NCBI GenBank assembly: GCA_023136735.1
Contig: JAGLQQ010000056.1
Coordinates: forward strand, 1-35,983
Length of the DNA stretch: 35,983 nucleotides
From: Candidatus Omnitrophota bacterium
GTDB lineage: Bacteria; Omnitrophota; Gorgyraeia; B26-G9
Direction of reading: 5' to 3'
In this document: positions 3,612 to 22,033 of the stretch, in pieces
How the letters are laid out: each line of letters starts with the position of its first letter
How positions within the stretch are numbered: position 1 is the first letter of the stretch
Notes under the pieces: model-generated
What the model was told of the DNA's origin: nothing
The model's input: the letters and a program-made list of their open reading frames with translations, nothing else
The model's database searches: none
Made by a program: the position numbers and the translations under genes

Positions 3612-3640
3612 TTGACAAGAAGAGCCTTTTTTGCTATATT
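3612..3640 (+). promoter_or_regulatory. Near-consensus sigma70-type promoter for the glycan operon
   Basis: TTGACA (3612-3617), a 17-nt spacer, then TATATT (3635-3640) preceded by TGc (extended -10-like). It lies about 230 nt upstream of the 3874 start. Confidence 0.5.
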
Positions 3641-3873
3641 ATTTTTAAATCAAAATAATCTAACTATTTATATTTTCAATGTATTGCGTGAAATTTTATA
3701 TTTTTCAATAATGCTTTATTTATATGAAAAATTCGATAAAAAAGAGAGCTATTCTAGTTATATTCGCGGTACTCCCAAGTGCCAATATCTATGGTAGCCC
3801 ATCCTGAATATATTGACCCAGATGTAATCAGAAAAACTAAACAAAATTGTCTAATTTGTAAGGGTTCAAGAAA

Positions 3874-6179: not shown

Positions 6180-6955
6180 AAAATAATTATTTTGTACAAA
6201 TCTATCGTTATAAAGAACTGGTTAGTGCACTGGCTGATAAGGAAGTAAAGATAAAATACAAATCTGCTGTCTTGGGACATCTGTGGGCATTACTTAATCC
6301 ACTGCTTTTGATGCTGGTTTTTTCGTTTGTTTTCAGTGTCATCATGCGGGTTCAGATAAATAATTTTCCGGTTTTTTTGCTCTGTGCTTTATTACCCTGG
6401 TTTTATTTGAGCTTTTCGCTGAACGCTGCGACAACATCGATCGTTGATAACGCGAGTTTGATAAAAAAAGCCTATTTCCCTTATGAAGTTATACCGCTTT
6501 CTATTGTGATAGCTAATCTTTTTAACTTTTTGATATCACTGGTCTTGCTTTTTGCTTTTTTACTCTATTATTCAATTTATCCGAGCTGGTCATGGTTATA
6601 TTTACCAGTGATTGTTGTGCTTCAGAGTGTATTCATCCTAGGGCTTTGTTTATTGAGCTCTGCAATGCATGCGATGTACAGGGATGTGAAATATATAGTG
6701 GAACTGATATTGCTGGTTTGGTTCTACGCGACACCGATATTTTATCCGCTTTCGTTTGTACCTGATAATATTAGGCAATTTTTTCTTTTAAACCCGCTAA
6801 CTGTTTTCGTTAACCTTTATCGGCAGATTCTGCTGCAAGGGACAATGCCGGAACTAGGTTTATTGTTTCTGGCTTTTGTCTTAAGCCTGGCTTTTTATGG
6901 TGTAGGCATGGTAGTTTTTAACTCAAATAAGAAGAGCTTTGCGGATGTAACTTAA
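6176..6955 (+). CDS. wzm: ABC-2 type polysaccharide export permease (Wzm/TagG family)
   Basis: The N-terminus YRYKELVSALADKEVKIKYKSAVLGHLWALLNPLL is typical of Wzm/TagG. About 6 TM segments. ATGA overlap with the upstream gene, directly upstream of the matching ATPase. Confidence 0.85.
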   Translation: MKNNYFVQIYRYKELVSALADKEVKIKYKSAVLGHLWALLNPLLLMLVFSFVFSVIMRVQINNFPVFLLCALLPWFYLSFSLNAATTSIVDNASLIKKAYFPYEVIPLSIVIANLFNFLISLVLLFAFLLYYSIYPSWSWLYLPVIVVLQSVFILGLCLLSSAMHAMYRDVKYIVELILLVWFYATPIFYPLSFVPDNIRQFFLLNPLTVFVNLYRQILLQGTMPELGLLFLAFVLSLAFYGVGMVVFNSNKKSFADVT

Positions 6956-7086: not shown

Positions 7087-10000
7087 ATGTCTGAAATAGT
7101 AGTAAGTTTGAAAAATATAAATAAACAATATTGGTTGAGCTTTGCTAAGCAATCTTTGATAGGCAATTTCCTTTCAATGTTTAGATTTGGTAAAGGCATG
7201 GCGGCTAAAAGACATGTCTGTGCTTTAGAGGGTATAGCACTAAATATAAAAAGAGGAGAGGCCGTTGGAATTATCGGGGAGAATGCCTCTGGTAAGACAA
7301 CGATACTGCGCATAATTAGCAGGATAACTGTACCGACTACGGGGGAATTGGAAGTAAACGGCAAGGTAGCGGGCCTTCTTGATTTAGGGGCTGGCTTTCA
7401 TTCTGAATTGACAGGAAGAGAGAATATTTATCTGGATGCAGCTTTGTATGGCATGAGCCGAAAAGAAATAGATGGGGCTTATGAAAAAATAGTTGAATTT
7501 TCCGGATTAGGGGATTTTATAAACGCGCAGGTTAAGACATATTCTCAAGGTATGCTTGTTCGACTAGGCTTTGCTATAGCCATACACGTTGATCCTGATA
7601 TATTCCTTATTGATGACAGCTTAGCTGTCGGAGATGAAGAATTTCAGCGTAAATGTCTTAAGAAGGTTTTTGAATTAAAAGAACAAGGGAAAACTATTAT
7701 TGTTGTATCCCATGACCTCGATTCCATAAGCAGGATTTGCGAAAGAGGGATTTTGCTTAAATCAGGCAGGATTGTTAAAGATGATTCTATTCATAAAGTA
7801 ATTATGCGTTATATAGAGGCAGTGGGAGATAAAAATTCTATTGCTTCAATTGACAAAGGAAGAATCAGTGTTATTTTTAACAGCGGTAAAATCATTCTTT
7901 TATGGGACGGCAAGCCAATAACAAAGAATTTTGGAGGATATGCTAGCTTACAGTTTCTTGATAAATGGATAATGTCTTGGCAGGGGAAATGGCAGGTTGT
8001 GGAAAATACAGATTATTCCTTGAAAGTTCAAGGACTATTCGATAAATATGGAGTAAAATTGGAACTGGCTTGTTTTCTTCAGGGCGAAAGGCTGATGAAT
8101 TTTAATCTTAAGCTGGAGGTTCCCACACAAACGAGTCTGAAAAAAGCTGGTTTTGGGTTTATGGTAAGTGAAGAATATAACCGCTATTTAAATGGACAAA
8201 ACATTGAACCCATACAAGCTATTGATAAGTCGGCAAAAGAATGGACGGATATTTACCGCACTGACGAATATAATGCGCCGATTATGCTTATCAGCCGGGA
8301 TAGTATGCCTGTATTGAATATAAGGTTTGCTAGCCATGAATGGGCTGGATTCAGTCTAATTCAAAATACGGCAGAAGAATTGAATGCGCGTATTATGCAG
8401 ACTCAAATAAGCCCGCCTCAAGCATTTGCTTTATCAGGTGAAGAGAGTTCTATTGTAGAAAGCAGCTGTAGGCTTGAGCTTATGAGTGAAGAGGATTTTA
8501 AGGGCCTTATACACAAAAGAATAGAAGAAAGCACGATAGCATCCGGCAGGCTTAAAGTGCAATTAAAAGACAACGGTATCCAAATTTTCTTTGATGAAAC
8601 TGAGCTGACAAAGAGTAATGGATTGAGTCTTGGTTTTTATCATAAAAGCAGGTTTTTTGATCTGTTTGCAGGTCTTTGGAGTTTGACTAAAAATGCTTCA
8701 GAAACACTTAGTATATGCTCCAGTTTTCAGGAAATGGGGTTAAAGGCTGAATGTTTGTTGCAATTGGCTGAGGATAGCCTAAGGTGGAATATAGATATTA
8801 AAAGTGAGAAATCAATTGAAGATCACAGGCTTATCACAGGTCTTTATTTAAGCGAAAAATACAGAAAATATTTTACCGGAGTTCACGACTATGAGTTTCC
8901 TGCTTCAGGAGAGCATGTTGAAAAGATTGATTTATTAGCAGGAGAAACGGACTTTATAGGTTTAATGGCAGGAAACGATGAATTGCCTTCACTGGTCTTC
9001 GAATCTCTGCAGCCAGGCATGTTAGAGCTGCAAAACTCAGGGATTGATTCCCCGGGACGCATTTTAATGCAGGAGGTAGTTGACAGGAGTACAAACGGAC
9101 GGATCGTATTCCTTGAGACCCCGGAGCAAAAGAGTGGATTTTTAATCGATAAAAAGAAAAAACATGCTAAGAGTACGGGTTTAAGCAATGATCAGCTTAG
9201 GCTTGAGTTTAATGAAAATAATATTAATATTTACAGTGGAGAAAGTAAAATAACTGGAGGAGAGGGTTTTAGCAGCGGGGTTTACTTTAATGGTCGGTGG
9301 TATGAATCAACTCAGCTTAAAAAACAGATACGCAAAGAAGGAGATACTCTTAAGGTCTTGATTGAAAGACGCTTGCCGCGTTTAAGTGAATTGTGGGAGA
9401 TATCATTGAAAGCTAAGAAAATTCAGTGGATAACGAAAATTCAATCTGAGGAAAAATTGAGCGATGTGCATTATAAGGCCGGCATTGTTTTAAATTCAGA
9501 GTATGGACAATGGGCTCATTCTTTTAGTGAAGGGCAGTTTGATGAACAAACAAGAAATAGCCGGGTTGTTGATTTAGATGACGTGAACAATGCCTTGCTT
9601 GGTGCCAGATCTGAGGATTGTTCCCTGCCTGCAGTATTCTTTAAGAGAATTAACAGTATTACTTCAGGGGTTATTATTCAGAAAGAAGAAGATAAGTGCT
9701 GTTTGCACTTCAAATTAAAAAATGCGGCAGTGATAAACGGTAAGGGCAGGGAAAAACTGTTTTCTGGGACGATAAGTTTGCAGGATGAAAGATGCTGGAG
9801 GAATGATCTGTCAAATCACCGCAAAGAGGAGTTTTCTCTGCAGACAAGTGATGGGCTTCAATTGTTTGCTGCGAATAAGCAGATAAAACTGCAAGCTCAA
9901 GGCATAGAGCTTACACAGGCAAAGGGATTGGCAGTCGCGCTGCTGTGTGAAGATGAAGATATAGATACTAATTTTGCATTATGGACATTGAAGAAGAACA

Positions 10001-11148
10001 GCCCAAGTAAACTAGAGGTCCAAATGGATTGGGCTAACTCAGTCTTGAGACAAAGGTGGCAATTTGAGCTTATTGATGATGCGATACAATGGACAGTATC
10101 GTTTGATGTTAAGAAGCCTATTTTGTATAAAGAATTATTAGTAAATGTGTTTCCTCAAAAGCAATTTAACAGATGGCAAACTATAGCTGATGCTGGTCAA
10201 ATCGATTGTGAAGGATCAGCTGGCAAAGCAGTAACTATTTTCGATAATAGAAGTGAAATTCTTAAGGTGTTTCAGGAGGGGATTTCTCGGGAAAGCCCAG
10301 GTTTGGCGCTTAACCTGCTTGTGGATATGAAGAAATGGTTTTTACATATCTATAATCACGAACGAGGTGATGGAATCGCTTGCGGGGCGCACTACCTGTC
10401 GGATCCTCAAGGAGAGTGCCTTGATCAGGGCACAATTGAAATTTTTAAGGCAAAGATATCATTAGTGAGTGATAGTGGCAGCGAGCAAATTGCAGCCCCT
10501 GGCAATCATGTGGATGCTTATGATCTAGAACTCGTTAAATTGAAGGTCAAAATTGAAAAAGCAAAAATGAGATTATTCTGGGCTGATAAGGAATTGACTA
10601 AAAAACTTGGAATGTTTACCTCTTTTTCCATTAATGGAAACCTGATAGATTCAACCCTGGCTAAATGGGATGTGCAGGCGGCCGTCGATAATAAAATAAA
10701 AGTCCGATTGAACTGGAGCAGTTATTTTGTCTCTCAATTATGGGAGATCAAGCTGATAAGTGAACATGAACTTTGCTGGGATGTTCGTACTGAAATTAAT
10801 CAGGCGGGTATAGATAGACATACAGCAGCTTTAATGCTCTCAGATAATTATGAGAGCTATAAGTCAGATGATAATCAGGGAGGCTGTTTTCCTGATAGGT
10901 TTAAGCTGGATGTTTGGATGAATATGTCAAAGACTAAAGATAGCATAGAAGTTAATTCAAAGCAAAGCAGCTTTCCGGCTTTAATTTTTGATGCCGCTTT
11001 TGAAAAACATGAATTTAGTAATATGTTAGAGAATTCTGATGCTCTTCATTCATCTAGAGTTTTAAGATGCGAAATGCAGAGCCCTGAGCTGGCGGGTAAG
11101 GCAGGATTAGCTTCTAGCATAAAAATAAATATATCAATACAGGAGTAG
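7087..11148 (+). CDS. wzt: Polysaccharide ABC exporter ATP-binding protein (Wzt/TagH family) with a ~1100-aa C-terminal extension of five tandem repeat modules
   Basis: NBD within aa 1-250: Walker A GENASGKTT, signature YSQGMLVRL, Walker B IFLIDDSLAVGD, H-loop VVSHD. Residues ~255-1353 are non-NBD and internally repetitive. Confidence 0.9.
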   Translation: MSEIVVSLKNINKQYWLSFAKQSLIGNFLSMFRFGKGMAAKRHVCALEGIALNIKRGEAVGIIGENASGKTTILRIISRITVPTTGELEVNGKVAGLLDLGAGFHSELTGRENIYLDAALYGMSRKEIDGAYEKIVEFSGLGDFINAQVKTYSQGMLVRLGFAIAIHVDPDIFLIDDSLAVGDEEFQRKCLKKVFELKEQGKTIIVVSHDLDSISRICERGILLKSGRIVKDDSIHKVIMRYIEAVGDKNSIASIDKGRISVIFNSGKIILLWDGKPITKNFGGYASLQFLDKWIMSWQGKWQVVENTDYSLKVQGLFDKYGVKLELACFLQGERLMNFNLKLEVPTQTSLKKAGFGFMVSEEYNRYLNGQNIEPIQAIDKSAKEWTDIYRTDEYNAPIMLISRDSMPVLNIRFASHEWAGFSLIQNTAEELNARIMQTQISPPQAFALSGEESSIVESSCRLELMSEEDFKGLIHKRIEESTIASGRLKVQLKDNGIQIFFDETELTKSNGLSLGFYHKSRFFDLFAGLWSLTKNASETLSICSSFQEMGLKAECLLQLAEDSLRWNIDIKSEKSIEDHRLITGLYLSEKYRKYFTGVHDYEFPASGEHVEKIDLLAGETDFIGLMAGNDELPSLVFESLQPGMLELQNSGIDSPGRILMQEVVDRSTNGRIVFLETPEQKSGFLIDKKKKHAKSTGLSNDQLRLEFNENNINIYSGESKITGGEGFSSGVYFNGRWYESTQLKKQIRKEGDTLKVLIERRLPRLSELWEISLKAKKIQWITKIQSEEKLSDVHYKAGIVLNSEYGQWAHSFSEGQFDEQTRNSRVVDLDDVNNALLGARSEDCSLPAVFFKRINSITSGVIIQKEEDKCCLHFKLKNAAVINGKGREKLFSGTISLQDERCWRNDLSNHRKEEFSLQTSDGLQLFAANKQIKLQAQGIELTQAKGLAVALLCEDEDIDTNFALWTLKKNSPSKLEVQMDWANSVLRQRWQFELIDDAIQWTVSFDVKKPILYKELLVNVFPQKQFNRWQTIADAGQIDCEGSAGKAVTIFDNRSEILKVFQEGISRESPGLALNLLVDMKKWFLHIYNHERGDGIACGAHYLSDPQGECLDQGTIEIFKAKISLVSDSGSEQIAAPGNHVDAYDLELVKLKVKIEKAKMRLFWADKELTKKLGMFTSFSINGNLIDSTLAKWDVQAAVDNKIKVRLNWSSYFVSQLWEIKLISEHELCWDVRTEINQAGIDRHTAALMLSDNYESYKSDDNQGGCFPDRFKLDVWMNMSKTKDSIEVNSKQSSFPALIFDAAFEKHEFSNMLENSDALHSSRVLRCEMQSPELAGKAGLASSIKINISIQE
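7849..11145 (+). other. Five tandem protein-level copies of an unrecognised ~215-230-aa module (approximate starts at aa 255, 485, 701, 921, 1146 of Wzt)
   Basis: Recurrent anchors: GRISVIFNSGKIILLWDGKPITK; GRLKVQLKDNGIQIFFDETELTKSNGL; LRLEFNENNINIYSGESKITGGEGF..GRWYEST; LQLFAANKQIKLQAQGIELTQAKGL; KLKVKIEKAKMRLFWADKELTKKLGM. Distal anchors: YKAGIVLNSEYGQW, LELQNSGIDSPGRILMQ, SLIQNTAEELNARIMQ, MLENSDALHSSRVLR. Boundaries are approximate. Confidence 0.7.
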
Positions 11149-11151: not shown

Positions 11152-12141
11152 TTGATTGAGAATATCCCGGATAATCTTAAAAAAATTAAAATTTGCGATT
11201 TAAGTGCGGCTGCAAACTGTAATTTTAAATGTAAAATGTGTTTTTTTTGGCGCCCTCAAAAAAATGATGGGCAGACTATGAGTATCTCTGATTGGAAAAA
11301 GCTAATTTTGCAATTGGAGGAGTTTTTTGGTCCTGATCTGCTTATTAATATATCAGGTCCGGGAGAGGTGCTTCTTTTAAAGGGGATCGAAGAACTGCTC
11401 TTAGCTGCCGGTCGTAAATTCAGGGTTTCCATTAATTCTAACGGTTATGTAATCGATGATACTGCAGCAAAGATAATCACTGACAATATAGAGTCGATCA
11501 GCATATCGTTGGATGGTGTTTCAGCGCGAACGCATGATTATATACGCGGAATGCCAGGCTCTTATTCTGCAGCGGTTTTAGCTATCGAGAGACTGCGCAA
11601 AAAATCTAAAACGCTTATTATTACGGTAAGTACGGTTATTCTTGATTACAATTTAGATGAAGTTATTGATCTGGTTAACTGGATTGAAAGAAGTGAAGTT
11701 AATGGCATTATCTTTCAAGCTGTTTCTTTACCTAATAATATCGCTTATGATCCTATGTGGTTTAAAAATGAATTCAAATGTCTTTGGCCTCAAGATACAG
11801 AAAAAGTGAGGACCGTAATGGATAAGCTAATAGAATATAAAAGTCAGGGCAGTAAGATCGTTAATCCTGTTAAACAGCTTGAATGTTTCAAAGAGTACTT
11901 TTTAAATCCGCAACTGCATATTAAAAAATTAAGGTGTGAGGTTGATAATGTCTTAAAAATAGGCAGTTGCGGAGACATTAAGATCTGCGACTTTTCTCAG
12001 CCTATAGGAAATGTAAAAATAAGTCCGTTAAAGGAAATACTGGCTTCTGAGCTTGCTCAGGAGGAAAGACTAAAGGCTTATGAATGTAAAAGCCCCTGTC
12101 ATCTTTTGGTGAACTGTTTTCACGATAATGGAGGCGAATAA
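11152..12141 (+). CDS. Radical SAM enzyme with SPASM/twitch-like C-terminal Cys motifs (tandem paralog 1 of 5)
   Basis: TTG start 6 nt after AGGAG. CX3CX2C in AANCNFKCKMC. Other motifs: ISGPGE, NSNGY, SISLDG..HD..RG. Auxiliary motifs: C-X11-G-X4-C (CEVDNVLKIGSCGDIKIC) and CX3CX5C (CKSPCHLLVNC). Confidence 0.85.
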   Translation: MIENIPDNLKKIKICDLSAAANCNFKCKMCFFWRPQKNDGQTMSISDWKKLILQLEEFFGPDLLINISGPGEVLLLKGIEELLLAAGRKFRVSINSNGYVIDDTAAKIITDNIESISISLDGVSARTHDYIRGMPGSYSAAVLAIERLRKKSKTLIITVSTVILDYNLDEVIDLVNWIERSEVNGIIFQAVSLPNNIAYDPMWFKNEFKCLWPQDTEKVRTVMDKLIEYKSQGSKIVNPVKQLECFKEYFLNPQLHIKKLRCEVDNVLKIGSCGDIKICDFSQPIGNVKISPLKEILASELAQEERLKAYECKSPCHLLVNCFHDNGGE

Positions 12142-13158
12142 GTGGAATATACTGAAGAACAAAAAATAAATGCAGATAAAAGTATTTGCCCGGTGCCTAC
12201 TTTTTCCTGCTTTACACTCTGCGATGATTGTATTTTGCGTTGTCGAATGTGCGAAAAATGGAAGCCGGATATACATATTAAACCGGAGAGGAAGCAATTA
12301 GGCCAAGAAGACTGGAAAAGATGCGCAGTTTCATTGAAAAAAATTGCCCCGGAGAATTTTGTTATAAATTTCGGAGGAGGAGAAGTAACAACTGTACCTT
12401 GGCTTTTTGAAATTGTATCTTTTTGCCATGATTTAGGGTTTAAGACAAATATAGCCACTAACGGTTATTTGATGGATGAGGAGAAGGCAAAAAAGATGTC
12501 GGAATCAGGCCTTGATTATGTAAATATTTCTTTAGACAGCATTGATGAGACTTTGCATGATGAACTGCGCGGGGTAAAAGGCACATACGCTAAAGTGATA
12601 AATGCGATAGATCTTATTAATAAATATGCACCTAATACGCAGATAAGCCTTTGCTCGATTATGATGGCTGATACAATAGACGGGATGGTAGAGTTGGTAA
12701 ATTGGGCACAGGATAATGAGAAAGTAGCCATGATATACCTGATGGCCATTATGCAGCCGAATAATACTATGACCGGACTACAATGGTACAAAAATGAGTT
12801 CAGCCATTTATGGCCAAAAGATTATTGTAAAGTTAAAAATACAATTGATGAACTTATTGAGCTAAAGAAAAAGGGTTTCAAGATATCAAATCCCGTAGAA
12901 CACCTTCAGGCTTACAAAACTTATTTTTCTGACCCTCAGACGTATGTTAAAAAGTCAAATTGCAACATAGACCATGCTTTACACATTAGTTCCGTAGGGG
13001 ATGTTTTTATGTGTTACAGTTTTGATAAAATAGGCGATGCAAGAGAAGACTGTGTTGAAAATCTCTGGAAATCTGATAAAGCCGAGGATATCCGTAAACA
13101 GATTAGAGCTTGTAAAGAAAACTGTCATTTTCTTTTGAATTGTAACTTCAAGGATTGA
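12142..13158 (+). CDS. Radical SAM enzyme with SPASM/twitch-like motifs (tandem paralog 2 of 5)
   Basis: GTG start 7 nt after GGAGG, abutting the upstream stop. Motifs: CILRCRMC, NFGGGE, ATNGY, ISLDS..HD..RG, CNIDHALHISSVGDVFMC, CKENCHFLLNC. Confidence 0.85.
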   Translation: MEYTEEQKINADKSICPVPTFSCFTLCDDCILRCRMCEKWKPDIHIKPERKQLGQEDWKRCAVSLKKIAPENFVINFGGGEVTTVPWLFEIVSFCHDLGFKTNIATNGYLMDEEKAKKMSESGLDYVNISLDSIDETLHDELRGVKGTYAKVINAIDLINKYAPNTQISLCSIMMADTIDGMVELVNWAQDNEKVAMIYLMAIMQPNNTMTGLQWYKNEFSHLWPKDYCKVKNTIDELIELKKKGFKISNPVEHLQAYKTYFSDPQTYVKKSNCNIDHALHISSVGDVFMCYSFDKIGDAREDCVENLWKSDKAEDIRKQIRACKENCHFLLNCNFKD

Positions 13159-13162
13159 ATTT

Positions 13163-14200
13163 ATGCGGTATGAATTAGAAAAAAACATTGAGTCGGTGCC
13201 AACGTATTGTTGTATCGCGATATTAGAAAGCTGTTTTATGCATTGTAAAATGTGCTATAAATGGCAGGAAGATGTGCTTATTCGCAAGCCGGATGAGCCG
13301 ACATTAGAGGAGTGGAAGCAGGCGATATCAGATCTTGCGCAATTGTGTAAGGAGCAAAAGCCGCAAATTAATTTTGCCGGAGGAGAGCCGCTTGCTAGAG
13401 AAGAAATTTTTGAGCTTATAGCTTATGCGCAGAACCTGGGGTTTCCGGCGCTCTTAGCAAGTAATGCTTATTTAGTTGATGAGGTAAAAGCTCAAAAAAT
13501 TGCCCAAGCACAGCTTAAGGGTATTTCCATTTCTTTAGATGGCGTAACACCTCAAACTCATGATTTGATGAGAGGAGTTTTCGGTGCACATGAAAAGGTG
13601 CTGCAGTCCATAGATTTGATTAGGCGTTATTCTCCGGGCACTAAAATCACTTTGAATTGCTGTATTTGCGCTTTGAATATACACGAACTTCCGGATCTTG
13701 TTCAGTGGGCGAATAATGATGGTCGCATTGATGGCATATTTTTCCAGGCAGTGACACAACCTTTTAGTACTCCTGAGGAAGAATATTGGTACAAAAATGA
13801 TAAATATTCCGATCTTTGGCCTCTTGATACATTAAAAACGAATGAGATACTAGAGAAAATGTATTTACTAAAGTCAAAAGGTGATTTTAAGGCTCCTTTT
13901 CAGATTTTAAATCCAGCAAGTCAATTTAGAGCCTTTAAGCACTATTTCAGTGATCCTGAGAAGTTTATCAAAAAGGGACGCTGTCATCTTGATAATAGTG
14001 CAATTAATATAACTCCTGCAGGAGAAGTCCATCTTTGTTTTTCTATGCCGGCTATAGGCAATATAAAACATCAAAGTATCCAGACAATGTGGCATTCAAA
14101 ACATGCGGAAGAAGTTAGAAGTCAGATAAAGCAATGCAAAAAAAACTGCCAGGCATTGGTTAATTGTAATTTCGATGATAAACAAGACTATATTGACTAA
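13163..14200 (+). CDS. Radical SAM enzyme with SPASM/twitch-like motifs (tandem paralog 3 of 5)
   Basis: Motifs: CFMHCKMC, NFAGGEP, ASNAY, ISLDG..HD..RG, CHLDNSAINITPAGEVHLC, CKKNCQALVNC. Confidence 0.85.
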   Translation: MRYELEKNIESVPTYCCIAILESCFMHCKMCYKWQEDVLIRKPDEPTLEEWKQAISDLAQLCKEQKPQINFAGGEPLAREEIFELIAYAQNLGFPALLASNAYLVDEVKAQKIAQAQLKGISISLDGVTPQTHDLMRGVFGAHEKVLQSIDLIRRYSPGTKITLNCCICALNIHELPDLVQWANNDGRIDGIFFQAVTQPFSTPEEEYWYKNDKYSDLWPLDTLKTNEILEKMYLLKSKGDFKAPFQILNPASQFRAFKHYFSDPEKFIKKGRCHLDNSAINITPAGEVHLCFSMPAIGNIKHQSIQTMWHSKHAEEVRSQIKQCKKNCQALVNCNFDDKQDYID

Positions 14201-14217
14201 AAAAGGAAAACTAGCTA

Positions 14218-15228
14218 ATGATAAAACCTAGGTTTGGATGTTTAGGTATTACGGATAATTGTATGTTACGCTGTAAAATGTGTCAAAAATGGAAGCCGGA
14301 TATTTTTATAAGCGAGAAAGATGTCAATAAGTTCCCTACAGTCGCACAATATCGGAAGTTTCTTTATGAACTTCGGGAGCTGGTTGACGATGATTTTGTC
14401 GTTAATTTCGGCGGCGGCGAAGCGTTATTGTACCCGGATATATTTGAAGTTATTAAAATTGCCTCAGAATGCGGATTACGCACAAATATCAACTCGAATG
14501 GGTTTTTAATCGATGAAAAGGTAGCCCGCAAATTAGGCGAGGCGGGGATGCAGAATATAAAAATATCTTTAGATAGTGTAGATCCAAAAATCCATGATTA
14601 TATGCGGGGAGTAGAAGGTGTTCACGCGCGGGTGATTCAAGCTATTAATAATTTGCATGAATTTGCTCCCGCAATGAATGTGTCATTAATAAGCGTGATC
14701 TATGAGCAAACTTACAGAGGTTTTATTCCTCTAATAGAATGGATAAACAATAATGAAAAGATCGAGCATGTTTTGATAATGGTTGCCATGCAGCCGAATA
14801 ATACTGAACCTGAAGAACATTGGTGGAGCTCTAAACACGGGTTTCTTTGGCCAAAGGACAAAGCGGCTGTTTCTGTTCTTATGGATAAGCTGATAGACTT
14901 AAAAGCTCAGGGGTATAAAATCAATAATGAAATAGTTCAATTAAAAGCGGCTAAGGAATACTTAAAGCAGCCGGATAAGTTTGTTAAAAGTACTATTTGT
15001 AATATGTATAAGGCGGTGCATGTAAGTGCTATAGGCCAGATATTCATTTGCTTTAACTACGGATTTCTCGGAGATATTCGTAAAGGCGATGATATAAGAA
15101 AAATATGGCAATCTCAGGAAGCAGAAGCTGTCCGGAGGGAAATAAAGAATTGCAAAAAAAACTGTCATTTTTTAATAAATTGTTATTTTGAAGAAGATGA
15201 ATTAACTGAGGAGTTGCAAAACCAATGA
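14218..15228 (+). CDS. Radical SAM enzyme with SPASM/twitch-like motifs (tandem paralog 4 of 5)
   Basis: Motifs: CMLRCKMC, NFGGGE, NSNGF, ISLDS..HD..RG, CNMYKAVHVSAIGQIFIC, CKKNCHFLINC. It shares a 19-nt identical run with paralog 2 (AAAAATGGAAGCCGGATAT at 14285-14303 and 12254-12272). Confidence 0.85.
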   Translation: MIKPRFGCLGITDNCMLRCKMCQKWKPDIFISEKDVNKFPTVAQYRKFLYELRELVDDDFVVNFGGGEALLYPDIFEVIKIASECGLRTNINSNGFLIDEKVARKLGEAGMQNIKISLDSVDPKIHDYMRGVEGVHARVIQAINNLHEFAPAMNVSLISVIYEQTYRGFIPLIEWINNNEKIEHVLIMVAMQPNNTEPEEHWWSSKHGFLWPKDKAAVSVLMDKLIDLKAQGYKINNEIVQLKAAKEYLKQPDKFVKSTICNMYKAVHVSAIGQIFICFNYGFLGDIRKGDDIRKIWQSQEAEAVRREIKNCKKNCHFLINCYFEEDELTEELQNQ

Positions 15229-16250
15229 ATGAAAAAGAAAAAACTACTCAGTTGAAACCGCTTAGTTACTGTGATCTAGGAGTAGGTTATAAATGCAACT
15301 ATAAGTGCTTAATGTGCAAGTTATGGCAAAATAGCCCGCTTTGTGCAGATAATGTCCTGTCTATCGAGCAGTGGAAAAACGTACTGACTCAAATAGTTGA
15401 TCTACCCAAGAAAGACGGGTGCATGATTAATTTCGCAGGTTCAGGAGAAGCTCTTTTGAGAGGGGGAATATTTGAGCTCATAAAACACGGCAGAGAAATG
15501 GGTTTAAAAATACATGTGATCACTAACGGTTTTGCTGTAAACAAAGATGTAGCGCTAAAAATGGATCAATCAGGGCTAGAATCTCTATCGTTTTCGTTAG
15601 ATAGTCTTAATTCACAAACGCACGATTACTTAAGAGGAGCCCCAGGGGCTAAAGATAGAGTACTTAAGGCAATAGAACTTATAGCTTTGCATTCTCCAAA
15701 TACAAAGATGGGTATTAATACTGTTATCAGCGGAGTAAATATCAAAGAGGTTATGGAACTTACCAAATGGGTAGAAGATCATGATAAGCTTGCTTATATA
15801 AACTTTCAGGCAATTACTCAACCCTTTTCTTTTACCGATTCCTCAAAAGAAGATTGGTTTGAAGATGAGAAAAATAAATTTCTCTGGCCGGAGGATAAAA
15901 AGGCTGTAAATCAGACAATTGATGAGTTAATAGAATTGAAACAGAAGCATAACAAGATAGCTGATAGTGCAGAGCAGCTTAATATCTTTCGTGAATATTT
16001 TCTTAATCCCCTGTTGTTTATTAAAAATGGCCGCTGTAATTTGGGTAAGGGAGATATTTTAATAATAGATCCTGCCGGGCATGTATCAATGTGCTCGATA
16101 GTTGGGATAATTGATAATGTAAAAAATGCAAAGCCAATCAGGGACATTATGATGAGTCCAGGGGCTCAAGAGCATAAAGAAAAAATAAATGAATGTAGAC
16201 TGAATTGTCATCTGGTTGTCAGTTGTTATTACCATGAGGAATCTTCGTAG
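15225..16250 (+). CDS. Radical SAM enzyme with SPASM/twitch-like motifs (tandem paralog 5 of 5)
   Basis: ATGA overlap with paralog 4. Motifs: CNYKCLMC, NFAGSGE, ITNGF, FSLDS..HD..RG, CNLGKGDILIIDPAGHVSMC, CRLNCHLVVSC. Confidence 0.85.
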   Translation: MNEKEKTTQLKPLSYCDLGVGYKCNYKCLMCKLWQNSPLCADNVLSIEQWKNVLTQIVDLPKKDGCMINFAGSGEALLRGGIFELIKHGREMGLKIHVITNGFAVNKDVALKMDQSGLESLSFSLDSLNSQTHDYLRGAPGAKDRVLKAIELIALHSPNTKMGINTVISGVNIKEVMELTKWVEDHDKLAYINFQAITQPFSFTDSSKEDWFEDEKNKFLWPEDKKAVNQTIDELIELKQKHNKIADSAEQLNIFREYFLNPLLFIKNGRCNLGKGDILIIDPAGHVSMCSIVGIIDNVKNAKPIRDIMMSPGAQEHKEKINECRLNCHLVVSCYYHEESS

Positions 16251-16271: not shown

Positions 16272-19200
16272 ATGTTTAAAAAATTGTTTTCAAAAATCAC
16301 CAAATGTGACTTTGCCAGCGGCGTGGCGAAACTAAGGGTAAAAAATAACCGATTAGAACTGGTTTATGCAAATACCAACATCAGCAGTGATATATGCATC
16401 CATACAGCAATGTTGATTGAAGGCCAATGGTTGAGCTCATCTGACGGGCTTTGGAGCAGTGAGAAGAAAAAAGATACCCTGCATATTACTATTGACTGGA
16501 AGGAAATTCCTATACGCCATCTTTGGCAGATCAGAAGGATTGAAAACGGATTTAACTGGATAGTTTATATGGATATAAAATCAGAGGTCAAAATTGAAAA
16601 AATGATTTGCGGGATTATGCTCAAAAGTGATTATGAGAAATGGATAAGCGCTGTGGAAGAAGGGAGCTTTCCTGCTTTTAGTAAATCCTGGGGTAATGTT
16701 TTTCTGCAGGATACCGAAGGTAAATTATTGGGAGTTCGCAATCAGAATGATTTTCCTGGTGTCATATTTGAAAATCTGCAGCACGGGGAGCTTTTACTAC
16801 AGAATTCTCCTGATGACTCGCAAAGCCGGGCTTTGCGGATTGAGCAGGATTTTCATAGCGAAGTATTAAAGGTTAATCGTTACAAACCTTTCAACCTGAA
16901 CCTTTATTTACTGGAAAACATGGGAGAAACTGATGATTTTATAGATAAAAAAAATAAACAGCTGCTTGAGCAAAGGCAGATTATAGAAGGCAAATTAAAG
17001 CTGGAGCTTGAGCATTCCACAATACATCTTTACTGGGATGAGTTAAAGCTGACGGCAAATCAGGGACTGCATTCGGCATTAATGGTGGGTGGGGAGTGGT
17101 TTGATTCTAGTTACGCGCAATGGAAAGTGCAAAGGATAAATGCCCAGTGCATTTATATAGATATTGACTGGCGCCCATTGCCGATAAAGCAGTCATGGCA
17201 ATTGACTATAAATAACGGAACATCATTCGACTGGAAAGTCAAAACGCAGTTAAAAGAAAAAAGAGAGGACTTGATAGGTAAAATGTCATTAGGCCTGGTT
17301 CTTAATCCTGATTATAAAGAGTGGCTGGGTGTATATGAGTCAGGCAGGTTTCCTGTGGATTTCGGTTCTTGGCAGGAAATGATCGAAGATATGCCTGAGG
17401 GGGCTATTGGTTTAAAAAATGCTGCGAAGCTTCCTGGAATAATATTCAAAAATACAGATGGATACAAACCAAAGCTTTTGGTGCAAAACGGAGATAAAGA
17501 CGCTAAAGCCCGTTTTCTGCAATCAGTTAGTGCTGATGAATTTGAATTTCACCAACAGATTAAAATAGTAGAGGATAAAAAGGACATTGAGGAATTTATC
17601 AAGGGAAAAATGGATGAAGAGATCCTGCGTAGTGGAATTTCATTAGGCAGTATGAAACTTGTTTGTAGTAAAGGTAAAGTTCGTTTATTCTGGAAAGACA
17701 AAGAAATTACTACTGATATTGGTTTGCATTCAGCTGTTTGCTCCGGAGGACGCTGGTATGATTCGGGTAAAATGAAATGGGATATCAAAAAAGTAACGGA
17801 TAAAAAGCTTAAGATATGTGTTGATTTTAATCCGTTCCCGGCAATTCAGACCTGGGAGTTAGATTTTAGTTCAAGCAATGTCTTTTCCTGGAAAATATCA
17901 ATGAAATTGTTAAAGCCTGTTGAAATAAGCGAACATAAAGCGGGAATTATCCTCAACGGTGCTTATAAAGAGTGGTTCAATTCTTTTGAGGACGGTAAAT
18001 TTCCGGAAAAATTCAGTTATTGGCACGATATAATTCGCAATAGGGACGCAGAGACATTCGGGGCCTATCCTGCAGGTGATTTGCCAGGAGTAATGCTAAG
18101 CCTTGATGAAAAGCATCTATCTTTGATCCAGAATACGGATGAGAATATAAGCGGCCGTGTTTTTCAAGGCCAGGTTGTAGAAACAGAGGAAACAAAGCTA
18201 TACGAAAAACAAGAATTTGATTGTTTTGCAGCTGTTCTAAAGTTAGTCGAAGACCGCAGCCAGATTGCGGAGTATAAAAAAGAAGCTCAGCCGCTGTCAT
18301 ATGAGAGTGAAACAATATATCTATATGCGGACAATGCCTTTTTACATAATAGAATAGCAGGGGTAGATGATTTTGAGGAAAAGATTAAAAAGATCAAAGC
18401 ATTGATCAATCAAAATAAGAAATTCAAGATTACTATTGGTGTTTCCAGATATAACTTTTTTAAGCTGGAGCAAGTGTTGAAGTTTGTTTTGAGTTTAAAG
18501 GGCAAAAACATTGATTTGCGTTCGTCGAAATTAAATATTTTGCCGCTTAGACGTTTGCGCCGGAATTCTATTGAATATTTTGAGGCGCTTAAAAAAATAG
18601 CTATGCAAGAAGGTGGAGTAAACTTTGCTTTAATTGATCGAGATTTCTTCAAGATGATAACGTCAATTTACGCACAGGCTGATTCCGGGAACGAACGTCA
18701 GCTACTGAGACTTTTGGGAGTTTTATGCGAACATGCCTTTATTGGGCCTGCGATAATAGTCATTGATCCGTATCATCGTTGTAATGCAAATTGTATCCAT
18801 TGTTGGGTGCATACTCCGGGAGTAAGCCATCCTAAAGAATACTATGACATGAAACTTGATGTGAATAAGTTTAAGGCTATTGCGGATGATCTGGGAGACT
18901 TGATGGTTGATCTGATCATTTTTCAGGGAGACGGTGAGCCATTAATGCATGATCGTTTCTTTGATATGGTCAAATATGCTCGGGATAAGGGTATTCAGGT
19001 TTCTTTTTTTACTAATGGTATCCTTTTGAATAAGGGCCATGCAGATACTTCTCTGGAAAATGGAATAAGCGAAATATTCTGCAGTTTACCGGCTGGAACT
19101 GCTAAGACATTTGCAAAGATCAATTCCAAGCAAAGTGAGAAGACCTTTGACGATATTTTGAAAAATTTAAAATATTTATGTGATAAAAAAAAGAGAAAAA

Positions 19201-19811
19201 CGGGGAATAAACCAAGATTGATAATGACTCATGTAATTCATAATCAAAACGCGCATGAGCTTGTTGAAATGGCTAGGAATGATATTGAAATTGGCGCTGA
19301 TGTCATGCGTTTTTATCTGATCCGTTTGGATGAAAATATTGAGTTTTTGAAATTAAAGGCTGAAGATCTTGAAAAAATAAAGACTTCAATGGTACAGATA
19401 AAGCAACTTGCAAAAGGTAAGGATATACAACTCTTAGACACCACTGATTTTCAGCTTGAGAACTTTGAACAAGAAAGCGGCTCTTGGTCGGGAAACGTGT
19501 TTCTTGAAAAGGGTTGTACTCTTGGCTGGAATTTTTGTCTTATTCCGGCATCAGGGGAGGTGAGTTTTTGTTGTCATTTGAGAACAGTCGGGTATTTGGC
19601 AGAAAAAGGGTTTAAGGCTATTTGGAACTCCGACGATTATAAGCGTTTTCGCTACCAGGCTAAATTTTTGAGTAAAAACGCAAAGGAAAAATTCCTGAAC
19701 GGTACATCTCTTTTTGATGAATATTGCCAGCATTGTGATACACATCAGGTGATAAGAGATGTTTGGGATCAATTTAAATTATATAATTTAGAGGAATTTT
19801 TTAGCGGCTGA
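16272..19811 (+). CDS. 1179-aa fusion: three copies of the Wzt-type repeat module, a linker, and a C-terminal radical SAM domain with a twitch/SPASM-like motif
   Basis: AGGAG lies 8 nt upstream. The rSAM CX3CX2C is CNANCIHC at 18780-18803. Other motifs: FQGDGEP, FTNG, and C-X12-G-X4-C (CTLGWNFCLIPASGEVSFC). The N-terminal ~665 aa are repeat modules. Confidence 0.85.
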   Translation: MFKKLFSKITKCDFASGVAKLRVKNNRLELVYANTNISSDICIHTAMLIEGQWLSSSDGLWSSEKKKDTLHITIDWKEIPIRHLWQIRRIENGFNWIVYMDIKSEVKIEKMICGIMLKSDYEKWISAVEEGSFPAFSKSWGNVFLQDTEGKLLGVRNQNDFPGVIFENLQHGELLLQNSPDDSQSRALRIEQDFHSEVLKVNRYKPFNLNLYLLENMGETDDFIDKKNKQLLEQRQIIEGKLKLELEHSTIHLYWDELKLTANQGLHSALMVGGEWFDSSYAQWKVQRINAQCIYIDIDWRPLPIKQSWQLTINNGTSFDWKVKTQLKEKREDLIGKMSLGLVLNPDYKEWLGVYESGRFPVDFGSWQEMIEDMPEGAIGLKNAAKLPGIIFKNTDGYKPKLLVQNGDKDAKARFLQSVSADEFEFHQQIKIVEDKKDIEEFIKGKMDEEILRSGISLGSMKLVCSKGKVRLFWKDKEITTDIGLHSAVCSGGRWYDSGKMKWDIKKVTDKKLKICVDFNPFPAIQTWELDFSSSNVFSWKISMKLLKPVEISEHKAGIILNGAYKEWFNSFEDGKFPEKFSYWHDIIRNRDAETFGAYPAGDLPGVMLSLDEKHLSLIQNTDENISGRVFQGQVVETEETKLYEKQEFDCFAAVLKLVEDRSQIAEYKKEAQPLSYESETIYLYADNAFLHNRIAGVDDFEEKIKKIKALINQNKKFKITIGVSRYNFFKLEQVLKFVLSLKGKNIDLRSSKLNILPLRRLRRNSIEYFEALKKIAMQEGGVNFALIDRDFFKMITSIYAQADSGNERQLLRLLGVLCEHAFIGPAIIVIDPYHRCNANCIHCWVHTPGVSHPKEYYDMKLDVNKFKAIADDLGDLMVDLIIFQGDGEPLMHDRFFDMVKYARDKGIQVSFFTNGILLNKGHADTSLENGISEIFCSLPAGTAKTFAKINSKQSEKTFDDILKNLKYLCDKKKRKTGNKPRLIMTHVIHNQNAHELVEMARNDIEIGADVMRFYLIRLDENIEFLKLKAEDLEKIKTSMVQIKQLAKGKDIQLLDTTDFQLENFEQESGSWSGNVFLEKGCTLGWNFCLIPASGEVSFCCHLRTVGYLAEKGFKAIWNSDDYKRFRYQAKFLSKNAKEKFLNGTSLFDEYCQHCDTHQVIRDVWDQFKLYNLEEFFSG
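16314..18266 (+). other. Three protein-level copies of the repeat module (approximately aa 15-215, 238-435, 455-665)
   Basis: Anchors: KLRVKNNRLELVY..GQWLSSSDGLW; KLKLELEHSTIHLYWDELKLTANQGLHSA..GEWFDSSYAQWKV; MKLVCSKGKVRLFWKDKEITTDIGLHSA..GRWYDSGKMKWDI. Distal anchors: HKAGIILNGAYKEWFNSFEDGKFP, FPGVIFENLQHGELLLQNSPDDSQSRALRIEQ, LPGIIFKN..LLVQNGDKDAKARFLQ, LPGVMLS..LIQNTDENISGRVFQ. Confidence 0.7.
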
Positions 19812-20806
19812 TGAAATTTAGAATCGCATGGTCCGTAAATAGGGGAAATAAAAAGTACAAAGCAACTTTGTGTGGAGGTTTTCTGCTTATTATTTGCGGT
19901 GCCTTGATCTCGGTGATATTGGCTGAGCTGTTTGTGAGATATTTTGTTGATTTGCCGCTTGAAAAGGAGTATCTGCGGTTTGGTTGTAACGATTATGAGA
20001 AGTTTGATCCTGAGAATTATGATAGAGATCTATTTTGGAAACCGACTGAAGAATTTAAAAATGTTGAATACTCGATTAAAAAGCCAGAAAATACGTTCAG
20101 AATTATCTGTATTGGTGATTCTATAACTCAAGGTGACGCGCAGGAAAAAGGTCTTTTGCCCAGAGAGCAAACTTATGTTTATAAATTAGAGCGGCTGTTT
20201 TCAAAGGAATTTAAGGCAAAGAACATTGAAGTTATAAACGCGGGCAGCGGGGGATATAGTTCTTTGCAGGGGCTAAGGTATCTTAAAAGAACATTGTGGA
20301 AATATGAACCTGATTTGGTAGTAAGCTGGTTTGGTATAAACGATTACTATTACTCTTTGTTTTATCCTGACAAAGAGCAGAGATTGCCGGAGGATAAGGC
20401 TCTGAGATCGGGAACAATCCTGTCAAAAAGCAGACTGTTGCTATTTGTTAAAAATTTTACTTTGATAAGAAGATCATTGAAAAAGCCTGTAGTTCGAGTG
20501 CCGCCTGATGATTTCTATGAAAATTGCGAAGAAATGCTTATTTTTTCAAAGGAAAATAGGTTTAAGATAGTTTTTGTCGCTCCTTTTCAGTATGGACAGT
20601 ATAATAATATAGAATATTTTGAGGGCTATATGGAAAAGCTGGCTGATCTTGAAAAAAAGTATGGGTGCCAAATAATATATCTAAAACCATATCTCTCAGG
20701 AATAGACCTGAAAAGTATTTATGTGGATACGTGCCACTTTAATGAAGCCGGGAACATGATCCTGGGCTATGCTCTATCTGAATCTCTTAGAGGATATATA
20801 AAATGA
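19811..20806 (+). CDS. Membrane-anchored SGNH/GDSL-family hydrolase (esterase / acyl-transfer type), paralog 1
   Basis: TGATG overlap with the upstream gene. N-terminal TM segment (LCGGFLLIICGALISVILAELF). SGNH blocks: ICIGDSITQGD (I), NAGSGGYSS (II), WFGINDYY (III), DTCHFNEAGN (V, DxxH). Confidence 0.8.
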   Translation: MKFRIAWSVNRGNKKYKATLCGGFLLIICGALISVILAELFVRYFVDLPLEKEYLRFGCNDYEKFDPENYDRDLFWKPTEEFKNVEYSIKKPENTFRIICIGDSITQGDAQEKGLLPREQTYVYKLERLFSKEFKAKNIEVINAGSGGYSSLQGLRYLKRTLWKYEPDLVVSWFGINDYYYSLFYPDKEQRLPEDKALRSGTILSKSRLLLFVKNFTLIRRSLKKPVVRVPPDDFYENCEEMLIFSKENRFKIVFVAPFQYGQYNNIEYFEGYMEKLADLEKKYGCQIIYLKPYLSGIDLKSIYVDTCHFNEAGNMILGYALSESLRGYIK

Positions 20807-21043: not shown

Positions 21044-22033
21044 ATGAAGTTGAAATTAATTTTGAAAAAGGGGCGGAAGAACATAAAAATCAGTTTGCCG
21101 GCAGTTGTTTTGATGCTTTGCTTTGGGATTGTGGGGGGATTTTTAGTGGCTGAATTCATGGTCAGGAAGACAATCGTTTTTCCTCTAGATAGGGAGTATG
21201 GCAAATTTCTTCATCTATCCGGGTTCTCGATCCCCAAGGCCAATGTTGATGAAAAATTATTTTGGAAATCTTCGCCAGAGTTTAGAGGTGTCCCGCATTC
21301 AATTGAGAAAAAAAAAAGGGTTTTCAGAGTAGTCTGCCTGGGGGATTCTGTGACGCAGAGCCATGGTGCTGACGGGTATCCTCTGCCGCTTGAGAATACG
21401 TATGTTTTTTACTTGGAAAAAATTCTGGAGAGTAGTTTTGAAACTATGGATTTTGAAGCGATTAATGCTGGAGTAGGGGGATACAGCTCTCTGCAGGGGG
21501 TAAGATATCTACAAAATAAATTGATCAAATATGGTCCTGATTTGGTTGTAGTCTGGTTCGGCGTAAATGATGACTCTGATGCATTGTTTTTCCCCGATAA
21601 GGATCAGAGGATTGGGAAAAAAATTATTTCAGGAAAAAATAAACTTTTAGAAAATAGTAAATTTTATCTTTTTTTAAAAAACGTGATATTCAAGCCGAGA
21701 TTAAGAAGAGTGTCTAAGAAAAATTATTACGAAAATTGCAGGGAAATGCTGCTGCTTGGGGCAGATAATAATTGCGAAGCTGTTTTTGTGGTCCCGGTTG
21801 AGATTGAAAACGGCAGGATAGAATACTATGCGGAATATAAAGAAGCTTTGGAAAGATTGAAAATTGATTATAACTGCGCGATTATTGATATAAGGGATAG
21901 ATTGAATGCGGATAGCCGTATAAGCGAATTTTTTATTGATAATTGCCATGCAACAGCTGAGGGAAATAGGCTGATTGCGGAAGCGATAGTTGAAGAACTT
22001 AGACAAAAGGGAATAATTAAAGAAAAGGACTGA
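21044..22033 (+). CDS. Membrane-anchored SGNH/GDSL-family hydrolase, paralog 2
   Basis: N-terminal TM segment (LPAVVLMLCFGIVGGFLVAEF). SGNH blocks: VCLGDSVTQSHG, NAGVGGYSS, WFGVNDDS, DNCHATAEGN. The SD is weak, so the start is slightly uncertain. Confidence 0.75.
   Translation: MKLKLILKKGRKNIKISLPAVVLMLCFGIVGGFLVAEFMVRKTIVFPLDREYGKFLHLSGFSIPKANVDEKLFWKSSPEFRGVPHSIEKKKRVFRVVCLGDSVTQSHGADGYPLPLENTYVFYLEKILESSFETMDFEAINAGVGGYSSLQGVRYLQNKLIKYGPDLVVVWFGVNDDSDALFFPDKDQRIGKKIISGKNKLLENSKFYLFLKNVIFKPRLRRVSKKNYYENCREMLLLGADNNCEAVFVVPVEIENGRIEYYAEYKEALERLKIDYNCAIIDIRDRLNADSRISEFFIDNCHATAEGNRLIAEAIVEELRQKGIIKEKD
21308..21317 (+). repeat. A10 homopolymer inside the SGNH paralog 2 coding sequence
   Basis: gagAAAAAAAAAAggg encodes E-K-K-K-R, counted directly. 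The tract is less unusual in an AT-rich genome. Confidence 0.9.

Follow-up and report, generated by a model that had tools for sequence, protein, structure and literature searches.

Most of the radical S-adenosylmethionine (SAM) chemistry known to act on sugars belongs to single enzymes of antibiotic pathways. The aminoglycoside enzymes BtrN, NeoN and HygY abstract a hydrogen from a sugar carbon and then either carry out an oxidation or return a hydrogen from a cysteine, and the cytosylglucuronate decarboxylase BlsE works on the sugar ring of a nucleoside. Repeated radical modification of one polymer is known from the proteusin polytheonamide, on which a radical SAM epimerase and B12 radical SAM C-methyltransferases act many times. 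To our knowledge no cell-surface polysaccharide has been described that is tailored mainly by radical SAM enzymes, and we know of no O-antigen cluster with ten radical SAM domains. Herein we analyse a stretch of 35,983 nt (contig JAGLQQ010000056.1, hereafter the window) from a member of Candidatus Omnitrophota, an uncultured phylum whose cells are very small and often attached to hosts; in this stretch, five paralogous radical SAM genes, P1 to P5, stand head to tail at 11152-16250 inside an operon with a Wzm/Wzt-type transporter. Our results suggest, with a probability of roughly 0.6, that P1-P5 tailor, by radical chemistry and without redundancy, a polyprenyl-linked glycan that this adjacent transporter exports. 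Superfamily and export pathway have been described before; the family, with proteins of about 335 aa in ordered arrays, is uncharacterised and unnamed. The five genes, each supported by its open reading frame (ORF) and Pfam matches, are as follows.

11152-12141, + strand: P1, radical SAM protein of 329 aa, TTG start, its C-terminal domain twitch-like
12142-13158, + strand: P2, 338 aa, GTG start immediately 3' of the P1 stop codon
13163-14200, + strand: P3, 345 aa, the paralog chosen for the structure model
14218-15228, + strand: P4, 336 aa, with a 19-nt run in common with P2
15225-16250, + strand: P5, 341 aa, with a 4-nt overlap with the P4 stop (ATGA)

An initial annotation, made from the sequence alone, had taken these five consecutive ORFs of the same architecture for paralogs, and their boundaries, junctions, shared motifs and profile scores confirm that they are. 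The junctions measure 0, 4, 17 and -4 nt, with 21 nt between P5 and the next gene; a Shine-Dalgarno-like purine run precedes every start codon, and the boundaries are identical in the public gene calls of six contigs from the same population. All five match the Pfam family Radical_SAM (PF04055) at E-values of 1e-16 to 1e-23 (4.5e-19 for P1) and 59-82 bits, where the gathering cut-off is 29.5. For Pfam SPASM (PF13186), P2, P3 and P4 lie above the gathering score and P1 narrowly below it (20.9 vs 21.5 bits), while in P5 the Pfam scan detects no such domain, though all five C-terminal cysteines are retained. In total, ten radical SAM domains occur in the window, namely those of P1-P5, one each in the proteins encoded at 16272-19811, 26316-27959 and 34795-35940, and two in that at 22142-26326. 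On the family profile, P1-P5 score 476-544 bits against 42-97 bits for the other radical SAM proteins of the window, and therefore their homology is far above chance.

The core motifs listed in that annotation are invariant in the alignment of all five paralogs: CX3CX2C, which begins at residues 16-35 and is the binding motif of the SAM-cleaving [4Fe-4S] cluster (one such site per protein), then the SAM-binding motif G.GE, SLD, HD..RG, LWP.D and Y...P, and toward the C-terminus a C-X(11-13)-G-X4-C hairpin and a terminal CX3CX5C. Some of its looser motifs hold in only three or four of the copies; for example, W-[KQR]-P and FQA[VI][ST].P are each found in three of five, and N[ST]NG[YF] is approximate only. 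We collected 28 distinct related loci from a scan of species-representative genomes and from contigs with homologs, all scanned with the five-paralog profile, and across their 123 family members CX3CX2C is conserved without exception. The auxiliary cysteine motifs of the annotation also hold across homologs, since the five C-terminal cysteines are conserved at 95-99%, and the family-specific residues W209, W219-P220 and Y261 at 96-100%. With CX3CX2C, GGE and the five C-terminal cysteines kept, all five paralogs look catalytically competent.

By sequence comparison P1-P5 are old and diverged, each retained with its own collinear orthologs. The pairwise amino-acid identity among them is about 30-40%, with P2 and P4 as the closest pair (41%), while collinear orthologs of P1-P5 or P2-P5 in other Omnitrophota show 48-82% identity. 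In locus L008 the orthologs of P1-P2-P3-P4-P5 stand in the same order (53-71% identity), in L020, L021, L024 and L034 those of P2-P3-P4-P5 (48-75%), and L010 has orthologs of P1 (55%) and P2 (82%). P1 is the least widespread of the five, its orthologs being restricted to L008 and L010 (53-55% identity); P2 orthologs occur at 59-82% in L007, L008, L010, L013, L020, L021, L024 and L034, and the orthologs of P4 and P5 reach 55-75% and 44-55%, respectively. Every paralog is nearer to its orthologs than to its array neighbours, which places the duplications before the divergence of several Omnitrophota species. The ratio of nonsynonymous to synonymous substitution rates (dN/dS) between orthologs is 0.07-0.18, these values being rough as dS is saturated; it is 0.07 for P2 against its L010 ortholog, and P1 and P5 evolve faster (0.15-0.18). 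By this measure the selection on the paralogs is clearly purifying.

These identities do not agree with the relatively recent duplication or gene conversion that had been suggested at first from an exact 19-nt run, AAAAATGGAAGCCGGATAT, which begins at 12254 in P2 and at 14285 in P4. The match itself is real, and it exceeds codon-column shuffles (8 of 2000 were as long), a control that is lenient since shuffling breaks the conserved motif. In fact the run codes for some residues of the conserved C.MC.KWKPDI motif. The P2 and P4 DNA sequences are 52% identical overall and 61% identical in the 90 nt around it, with no extended conversion tract between the two genes. A recent event was rejected on the grounds of the 52% identity, the lack of a tract, the location of the run on a conserved motif and the old orthologs.

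The five copies are not a local expansion either, as had also been considered, because the homolog searches revealed that arrays are normal for the family. Across the 28 loci, tandem arrays have from 1 to 10 members: L016 has 10; L015, L027, L029 and L030 have 8 each; L012 has eight single-domain genes and one double-length fusion, and L018 seven and one fusion; L007, L008 and L013 have 5 each, L020, L021, L024 and L034 have 4 each, and L028 has 1. The members in L012, L015, L018 and L019 map in order to members 1-7 of L016 with 45-75% identity, where the identity within a large array is 30-48%; judged by these comparisons, the large arrays are old and ordered, and their order is conserved between genomes. 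An exhaustive profile search over 1.84 billion representative proteins found 1,907 representatives at E <= 1e-30. Homologs of P3 belong to Omnitrophota nearly throughout, and the source-named family matches of the first homolog search are all from Omnitrophota metagenome-assembled genomes (MAGs), except one labelled Deltaproteobacteria. Some related loci lie on contigs with archaeal labels, namely L031 on a contig labelled Methanosarcinales and L022, L027, L030 and L032 on contigs labelled archaeon or Woesearchaeota; this could be either true cross-domain spread or mis-binned epibiont DNA.

As for the enzyme structure, the AlphaFold2 model of P3 has a predicted local distance difference test score (pLDDT) of 92.3, with a single strand preceding the core. 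The top Foldseek matches by E-value are SuiB, BlsE, SkfB, CteB, anSME, MoaA, PqqE, DesII and viperin, at 13-19% identity; SuiB has the lowest E-value, and BtrN is also among the matches. The best two-way match is BlsE (PDB 7VOB), with template modelling (TM) scores of 0.69/0.72 and a root-mean-square deviation of 4.1. As BlsE is a twitch radical SAM enzyme acting on a nucleoside sugar, the model of P3 fits a sugar-acting enzyme. Moreover, BlsE resembles the array proteins in its length of about 330 aa, partial TIM barrel, cysteine-rich C-terminal domain, lack of a peptide-recognition domain and sugar-ring substrate. However, BlsE is only 19% identical to P3, its NCBIfam model gives 49-58 bits against a cut-off of 400, and it is encoded by a single gene in a nucleoside-antibiotic cluster, whereas here a collinear array of several paralogs lies in a Wzm/Wzt operon.

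With BtrN, NeoN and HygY, the array proteins have in common the C-X(n)-G-X4-C beta-hairpin and downstream cysteines. Sequence matches in the PDB are confined to the core (GDGT-MAS, SkfB and BlsE at the top), except that in the profile comparison the C-terminal region matches the twitch domain of BtrN at 5e-6. Yet the single-sequence match to BtrN is marginal (E 0.75), BtrN has four C-terminal cysteines against five here, its genomic context differs, and W209, LWP and Y261, invariant here, are not BtrN features. The maturases SuiB, CteB, SkfB and anSME have a similar overall fold (Foldseek 4e-14 to 5e-12) and the first half of the SPASM motif, but P1-P5 have neither a recognition element for peptides that are ribosomally synthesised and then modified post-translationally (RiPPs) nor any other N-terminal domain, and no precursor peptide. 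SPASM maturases have CX2CX5CX3C and a final cysteine, with 7-8 auxiliary cysteines, where P1-P5 have CX3CX5C and five; thus the full motif CX9-15GX4C-gap-CX2CX5CX3C-gap-C is absent from P1-P5, of which the first half is present and the second half is replaced by CX3CX5C. On the N_Twi_rSAM model P1-P5 reach 45-66 bits, where the cut-off is 170; the count of five cysteines and the match to the BtrN region fit a twitch domain. The five cysteines would provide one fully ligated auxiliary cluster and one spare cysteine, rather than the two clusters of a full SPASM domain.

Among the named NCBIfam radical SAM models compared (AhbD/NirJ, GeoRSP, PTO1314, prokaryotic viperin, BlsE, MoaA, PqqE and Tes), the best scores for P1-P5 are 80-105 bits against cut-offs of 180-650. 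Membership in a known curated family was rejected, as no model reaches its cut-off for P1-P5 or for the neighbouring radical SAM proteins. Neither NCBIfam and the curated model libraries nor the searchable literature gave a description of the family or of an ordered radical SAM battery coupled to Wzt by a beta-sandwich module common to both; searches for papers on radical SAM in connection with Omnitrophota, O-antigen, Wzt, polysaccharide or carbohydrate epimerases likewise did not reveal any account of the cassette.

The array lies inside a single-strand gene run with tiny gaps that extends from 3874 to at least 27959, and no terminator-like site was found on the + strand within the array. 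A gap of 0.6 kb separates 27959 from the downstream glycosyltransferase genes. The features around the array are the following.

3612-3640, + strand: promoter-like site TTGACA-17-TATATT with TG, the best on this strand and 5' of the first operon gene (consensus match only)
3874-4887, + strand: initiating polyprenyl-phosphate sugar-phosphate transferase of the WecA/MraY family (Glycos_transf_4, 6.9e-35)
4884-6179, + strand: FAD/NAD-binding flavoprotein of amine-oxidase fold, conserved in the cassette (PRK07208-like; the match to UDP-galactopyranose mutase is weak)
6176-6955, + strand: Wzm-like ABC-2 permease, conserved beside the ATPase (Pfam ABC2_membrane, 3e-15)
7087-11148, + strand: Wzt/TagH-like ATP-binding cassette (ABC) ATPase of 1353 aa, with the ATPase in residues 1-240 (ABC_tran) followed by five all-beta repeats of about 200 aa
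16272-19811, + strand: 1179-aa giant protein, three repeat domains and then a radical SAM/SPASM domain (Pfam and repeat comparison)
19811-20806, + strand: member of the SGNH/GDSL family, anchored by a hydrophobic N-terminus (13 of 28 loci keep it)
21044-22033, + strand: second SGNH/GDSL paralog with an N-terminal hydrophobic segment (Pfam and locus comparison)
22142-26326, + strand: 1394-aa giant protein, HpnJ-like B12-binding radical SAM domain, repeat, radical SAM/SPASM domain, repeat (Pfam and repeats)
26316-27959, + strand: B12-binding radical SAM protein, likely of the methyltransferase class (Pfam and curated models)
28566-29723, + strand: GT-B glycosyltransferase (Pfam Glycos_transf_1)
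29775-30725, + strand: ArnC-like GT2 polyprenyl-phosphate sugar synthase (ArnC model 227 bits, under its cut-off)
30736-32439, + strand: NodU/CmcH-type carbamoyltransferase (Carbam_trans_C 3.6e-54, Carbam_trans_N 1e-34)
33180-34886, + strand: GT-C membrane glycosyltransferase, PMT_2/ArnT-like (Pfam)
34795-35940, + strand: radical SAM/SPASM protein of 381 aa, a distant relative of P1-P5 (96.6 bits on the five-paralog profile)
7789-11145, 16272-18251, 23624-24301 and 25619-26323, + strand: copies of the repeat domain (sequence repeats)

With its initiator, Wzm/Wzt pair, glycosyltransferases, carbamoyltransferase and SGNH proteins, this region reads as one glycan export operon. An ABC-2 permease and ATPase pair stands together with a polyprenyl-phosphate sugar-phosphate transferase, as in the Wzm/Wzt pathway, and the order of transferase, Wzm and Wzt is kept in L008, L010, L020, L024 and L034; in L028 these genes recur, and a single small radical SAM gene separates Wzm from Wzt. 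The WecA-like gene keeps its position in all six of these loci, although its product scores 95 bits on the WecA model, under the cut-off, and the ATPase likewise stays under the cut-offs of the TagH (5.7e-56) and Wzt (5e-45) models. In L031, the ABC ATPase adjoining the cassette (3506-5683) has a true carbohydrate-binding Wzt_C domain, at 76 bits against a cut-off of 30.4, and for this reason we call the transporter Wzm/Wzt-like and read the repeats of the window's ATPase as a functional stand-in for Wzt_C. In described O-antigen export (PMC9445017) the permease/ATPase pair likewise lies by a WecA-like initiator and the ATPase bears a C-terminal extension, in that case a module that binds carbohydrate. 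In contrast, the extension here is about 1100 aa long, with five beta-supersandwich-like domains and no Wzt_C detected, and its domain is also fused to radical SAM enzymes.

The genes 3' of the array recur with it as well. The 1179-aa type lies directly 3' of the array in L007, L008, L013, L021, L024, L025 and L034. The HpnJ-like part of the 1394-aa protein scores 267 bits on the HpnJ model against a cut-off of 578, and HpnJ is an enzyme associated with contraction of the sugar ring in hopanoid cyclitol ethers. The two radical SAM parts of this protein are two genes in L009, L011, L012 and L014-L016, so that the fusion is lineage-specific. Near family members in the 28 loci, counted within the fetched 10-kb flanks on either side, we found a repeat-domain protein in 19, a SPASM radical SAM protein of about 410 aa in 19, an HpnJ-like B12 radical SAM protein in 17, the 1179-aa type in 16 and a Wzt-like ATPase in 11.

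Some further observations concern the periphery of the operon. The SGNH/GDSL genes at 19811-20806 and 21044-22033 form a tandem pair that is a single copy in several related loci. The ArnC-like GT2 and the GT-C protein at the operon end resemble an extracytoplasmic system that adds a side-branch sugar after export (cf. PMC11127046), and no flippase for such a system was identified. With its predicted start, the gene at 34795-35940 shares 92 nt with the 3' end of the GT-C gene, and the true start may be further downstream. Upstream of the operon, 12-2198 encodes a 728-aa protein with no Pfam match and 2135-2890 one of 251 aa whose N-terminus has a methylation motif like that of type IV pilins; the two genes have the same position in L010. 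In this packed region there are two long non-coding stretches, 2891-3873 (984 nt, with the promoter-like site) and 27960-28565 (607 nt), and an Rfam scan of the window, including both stretches, found no structured RNA.

The all-beta repeat of about 200 aa is common to the exporter and the giant enzymes, with five copies in the ATPase, three in the 1179-aa protein and two in the 1394-aa protein, ten in all. It matches no Pfam family, and a homolog search in a word-indexed database gave one match only, which was uninformative. Its model (pLDDT 87) matches mostly beta-supersandwich domains of carbohydrate-active enzymes and also OpgG, in a weak but consistent manner, from which the repeat looks carbohydrate-binding. 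The carbohydrate-binding fold of the E. coli-type Wzt was also considered for it, and is not among the top 50 structural matches listed.

Domain fusions, surveyed among the best family representatives, point in the same direction of glycan assembly. In P0101, P0104, P0126, P0150, P0153 and P0156 the family domain shares one protein with a GT2 glycosyltransferase, a coiled coil and a further radical SAM domain, and P0212 is a GT2-type fusion with its domains in a different order. P0082 joins the family domain to the beta-sandwich repeat domain (126 bits), P0152 and P0174 join it to B12 radical SAM domains, and P0091 and P0107 to TPR repeats; moreover, P0074 and about ten others are two- or three-fold self-fusions. 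These architectures would tie the family to glycan assembly, and they suggest that the paralogs act side by side on one substrate; the self-fusions give indirect support to a hetero-oligomer or other physical cooperation of the paralogs.

We thus propose the following scenario, in which the substrate, the types of reaction and the formation of a complex are conjectural and the reaction steps are drawn by analogy with the twitch sugar enzymes, the chemistry of BtrN, NeoN and HygY being the model. The WecA-like transferase would start a glycan on polyprenyl phosphate, the glycan would be built and modified in the cytoplasm, and the Wzm/Wzt-type ABC transporter would export the modified product. 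Each paralog would cleave SAM reductively, and the resulting 5'-deoxyadenosyl radical would take a hydrogen from one defined sugar carbon of the lipid-linked glycan. The sugar radical might then receive a hydrogen from a cysteine on the opposite face (epimerisation), lose one electron via the auxiliary cluster to give a keto sugar, or undergo beta-elimination (deoxygenation). The paralogs would differ in the residue or position attacked and work side by side, possibly as a complex, while the glycan-binding repeat module on the giant radical SAM proteins and on the Wzt ATPase would tie tailoring to export. Divergent specificity is what we infer from the retention of each paralog, and different steps or specificities on one glycan, an option raised in the initial annotation, fit the collinear orthologs, the purifying selection and the Wzm/Wzt operon. 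Of that interpretation as a whole, the paralogy, the doubt about a RiPP role and the different steps stand, while recent duplication or conversion and local expansion have to be given up.

Several points weigh against this scenario and should be considered together. The family is uncharacterised as to substrate, product and activity, and the organism is uncultured. The structural neighbours of lowest E-value include the peptide maturases SuiB, SkfB and CteB, and the best sequence match in the PDB is a lipid enzyme, GDGT-MAS, at 2.8e-22 and in the core only. The fold matches of the repeat domain are weak (E about 4e-4), the Pfam scan did not detect Wzt_C (PF14524) in the ATPase of the window, and the five small proteins of the array do not carry the repeat module. 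Sites that are conserved within but differ between orthogroups amount to only 5 strict positions, which is not decisive.

Among the other explanations, P1-P5 might make unusual nucleotide-sugar precursors, through radical reactions on UDP-, CDP- or GDP-sugars (epimerisation, deoxygenation, decarboxylation or dehydration), and so replace the short-chain dehydrogenase/reductase (SDR) type of sugar-nucleotide enzymes usual in O-antigen clusters. Such a role would agree with the absence of conventional sugar-nucleotide genes from the window, where we found no Rml-type enzymes, SDR epimerases or dehydratases, or aminotransferases, with the nucleotide-linked substrates of the structural neighbours BlsE, DesII, viperin and MoaA, and with the lack, in these small proteins, of the polymer-binding repeat of their giant neighbours; but the fusions to the repeat domain (P0082) and to polymer-building GT2 modules (P0104 and others), the tandem self-fusions, and collinear arrays of up to 10 members, many more than precursor pathways usually need, make it rather unlikely. 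A lipid substrate, either the carrier polyprenyl or the tail of a membrane lipid or glycolipid, modified in the manner of Tes/GDGT-MAS or of the hopanoid enzymes, is quite improbable. GDGT-MAS as the best PDB sequence match, the HpnJ-like B12 radical SAM neighbour and the radical SAM lipid genes Mss and Hbs reported in Omnitrophota MAGs (PMC11868695; bioRxiv 10.1101/2023.10.20.563219) speak for it, yet the GDGT-MAS match spans the generic radical SAM core only, the Tes model reaches 44-64 bits against a cut-off of 450, no lipid-synthesis genes were found in the window, and both the context and the fusions consist of glycosyltransferases, the Wzt exporter and carbohydrate-type beta-sandwich domains.

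It is also worth weighing whether P1-P5 are maturases of peptides or proteins, as in a RiPP or metalloenzyme system, acting on a distant precursor or on the giant repeat proteins, because peptides are the substrates of most characterised SPASM/twitch enzymes, the lowest-E Foldseek matches include SuiB, SkfB, CteB and anSME, and RiPP clusters also have ABC-2 transporters. However, no peptide ORF fits into the array junctions and nothing plausible lies in the 984-, 238- and 607-nt gaps of the window, where a peptidase is absent too. An all-against-all comparison of intergenic small ORFs likewise gave none conserved across most of the related loci, so that the linked short peptide gene which would have spoken for a RiPP system was not found. 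The sole small-ORF family in more than two loci, of about 48 aa, occurs in 3 of 28 and not in the window; it resembles linker segments within larger cassette proteins of L009 and L014, and probably represents a helix that has split off, not a precursor peptide. These basic ORFs lie just 5' of large arrays, at 9745-9894 in L015, 9783-9926 in L016 and 5592-5735 in L019. Moreover, since CX3CX2C begins so close to the N-terminus, P1-P5 have no N-terminal RiPP recognition element or peptide-binding domain, the fusion partners are glycosyltransferases and not peptide-processing domains, and all RiPP-maturase NCBIfam models are far under their cut-offs. With no peptide ORFs, and the only shared small ORF matching linkers, a RiPP system was rejected as the leading idea, in line with the initial doubt about such a role, and we give the maturase explanation very little credence. 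Just as little can be given to the view that the array is largely redundant or partly degenerate, with one or two catalytic copies and the others as scaffolding subunits of a hetero-oligomer. While the two- and three-fold fused family proteins suggest physical association, P5 has no detectable Pfam SPASM signal and P1 and P5 evolve faster, every cluster-binding cysteine and SAM motif is kept in all five, the cluster residues are 95-100% conserved in the 123 members, and each paralog has its own conserved orthologs.

Returning to the glycan-tailoring scenario, we may carry it further, tentatively and with much less confidence than the proposal itself. A simple lipid-linked polysaccharide might be rewritten after polymerisation by a fixed and collinear set of regiospecific twitch radical SAM enzymes, from 5 to over 10 in number, with B12 radical SAM enzymes alongside, through epimerisation, deoxygenation, oxidation or C-C chemistry; all of these enzymes would be recruited by the shared beta-supersandwich module, which on Wzt would verify complete tailoring ahead of export. 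The likeness to the proteusin pathway is one of logic only, a simple polymer being heavily rewritten by a radical SAM set that includes B12-dependent enzymes, whereas the substrate there is a ribosomal peptide with a leader, the context here is a lipid-linked glycan, and homology exists at the superfamily level only. Such a glycan-rewriting cassette appears to be widespread in Omnitrophota and may occur in some archaea too. If this is true, radical enzymes that modify polysaccharides would form a new class, and export would have a checkpoint of a new kind.

To sum up, clusters of this kind risk being annotated as RiPP systems, an annotation that the evidence advises against for the present one. 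A testable model for the coupling of modification and export follows from the module that the radical SAM enzymes have in common with the exporter ATPase. Tailoring of a glycan by the array, if true, would be sugar chemistry of an undescribed kind, most likely with a different radical modification for each enzyme. Altogether, the size of the family and its ordered arrays point to unexplored anaerobic carbohydrate chemistry and to unusual surface glycans in Omnitrophota.

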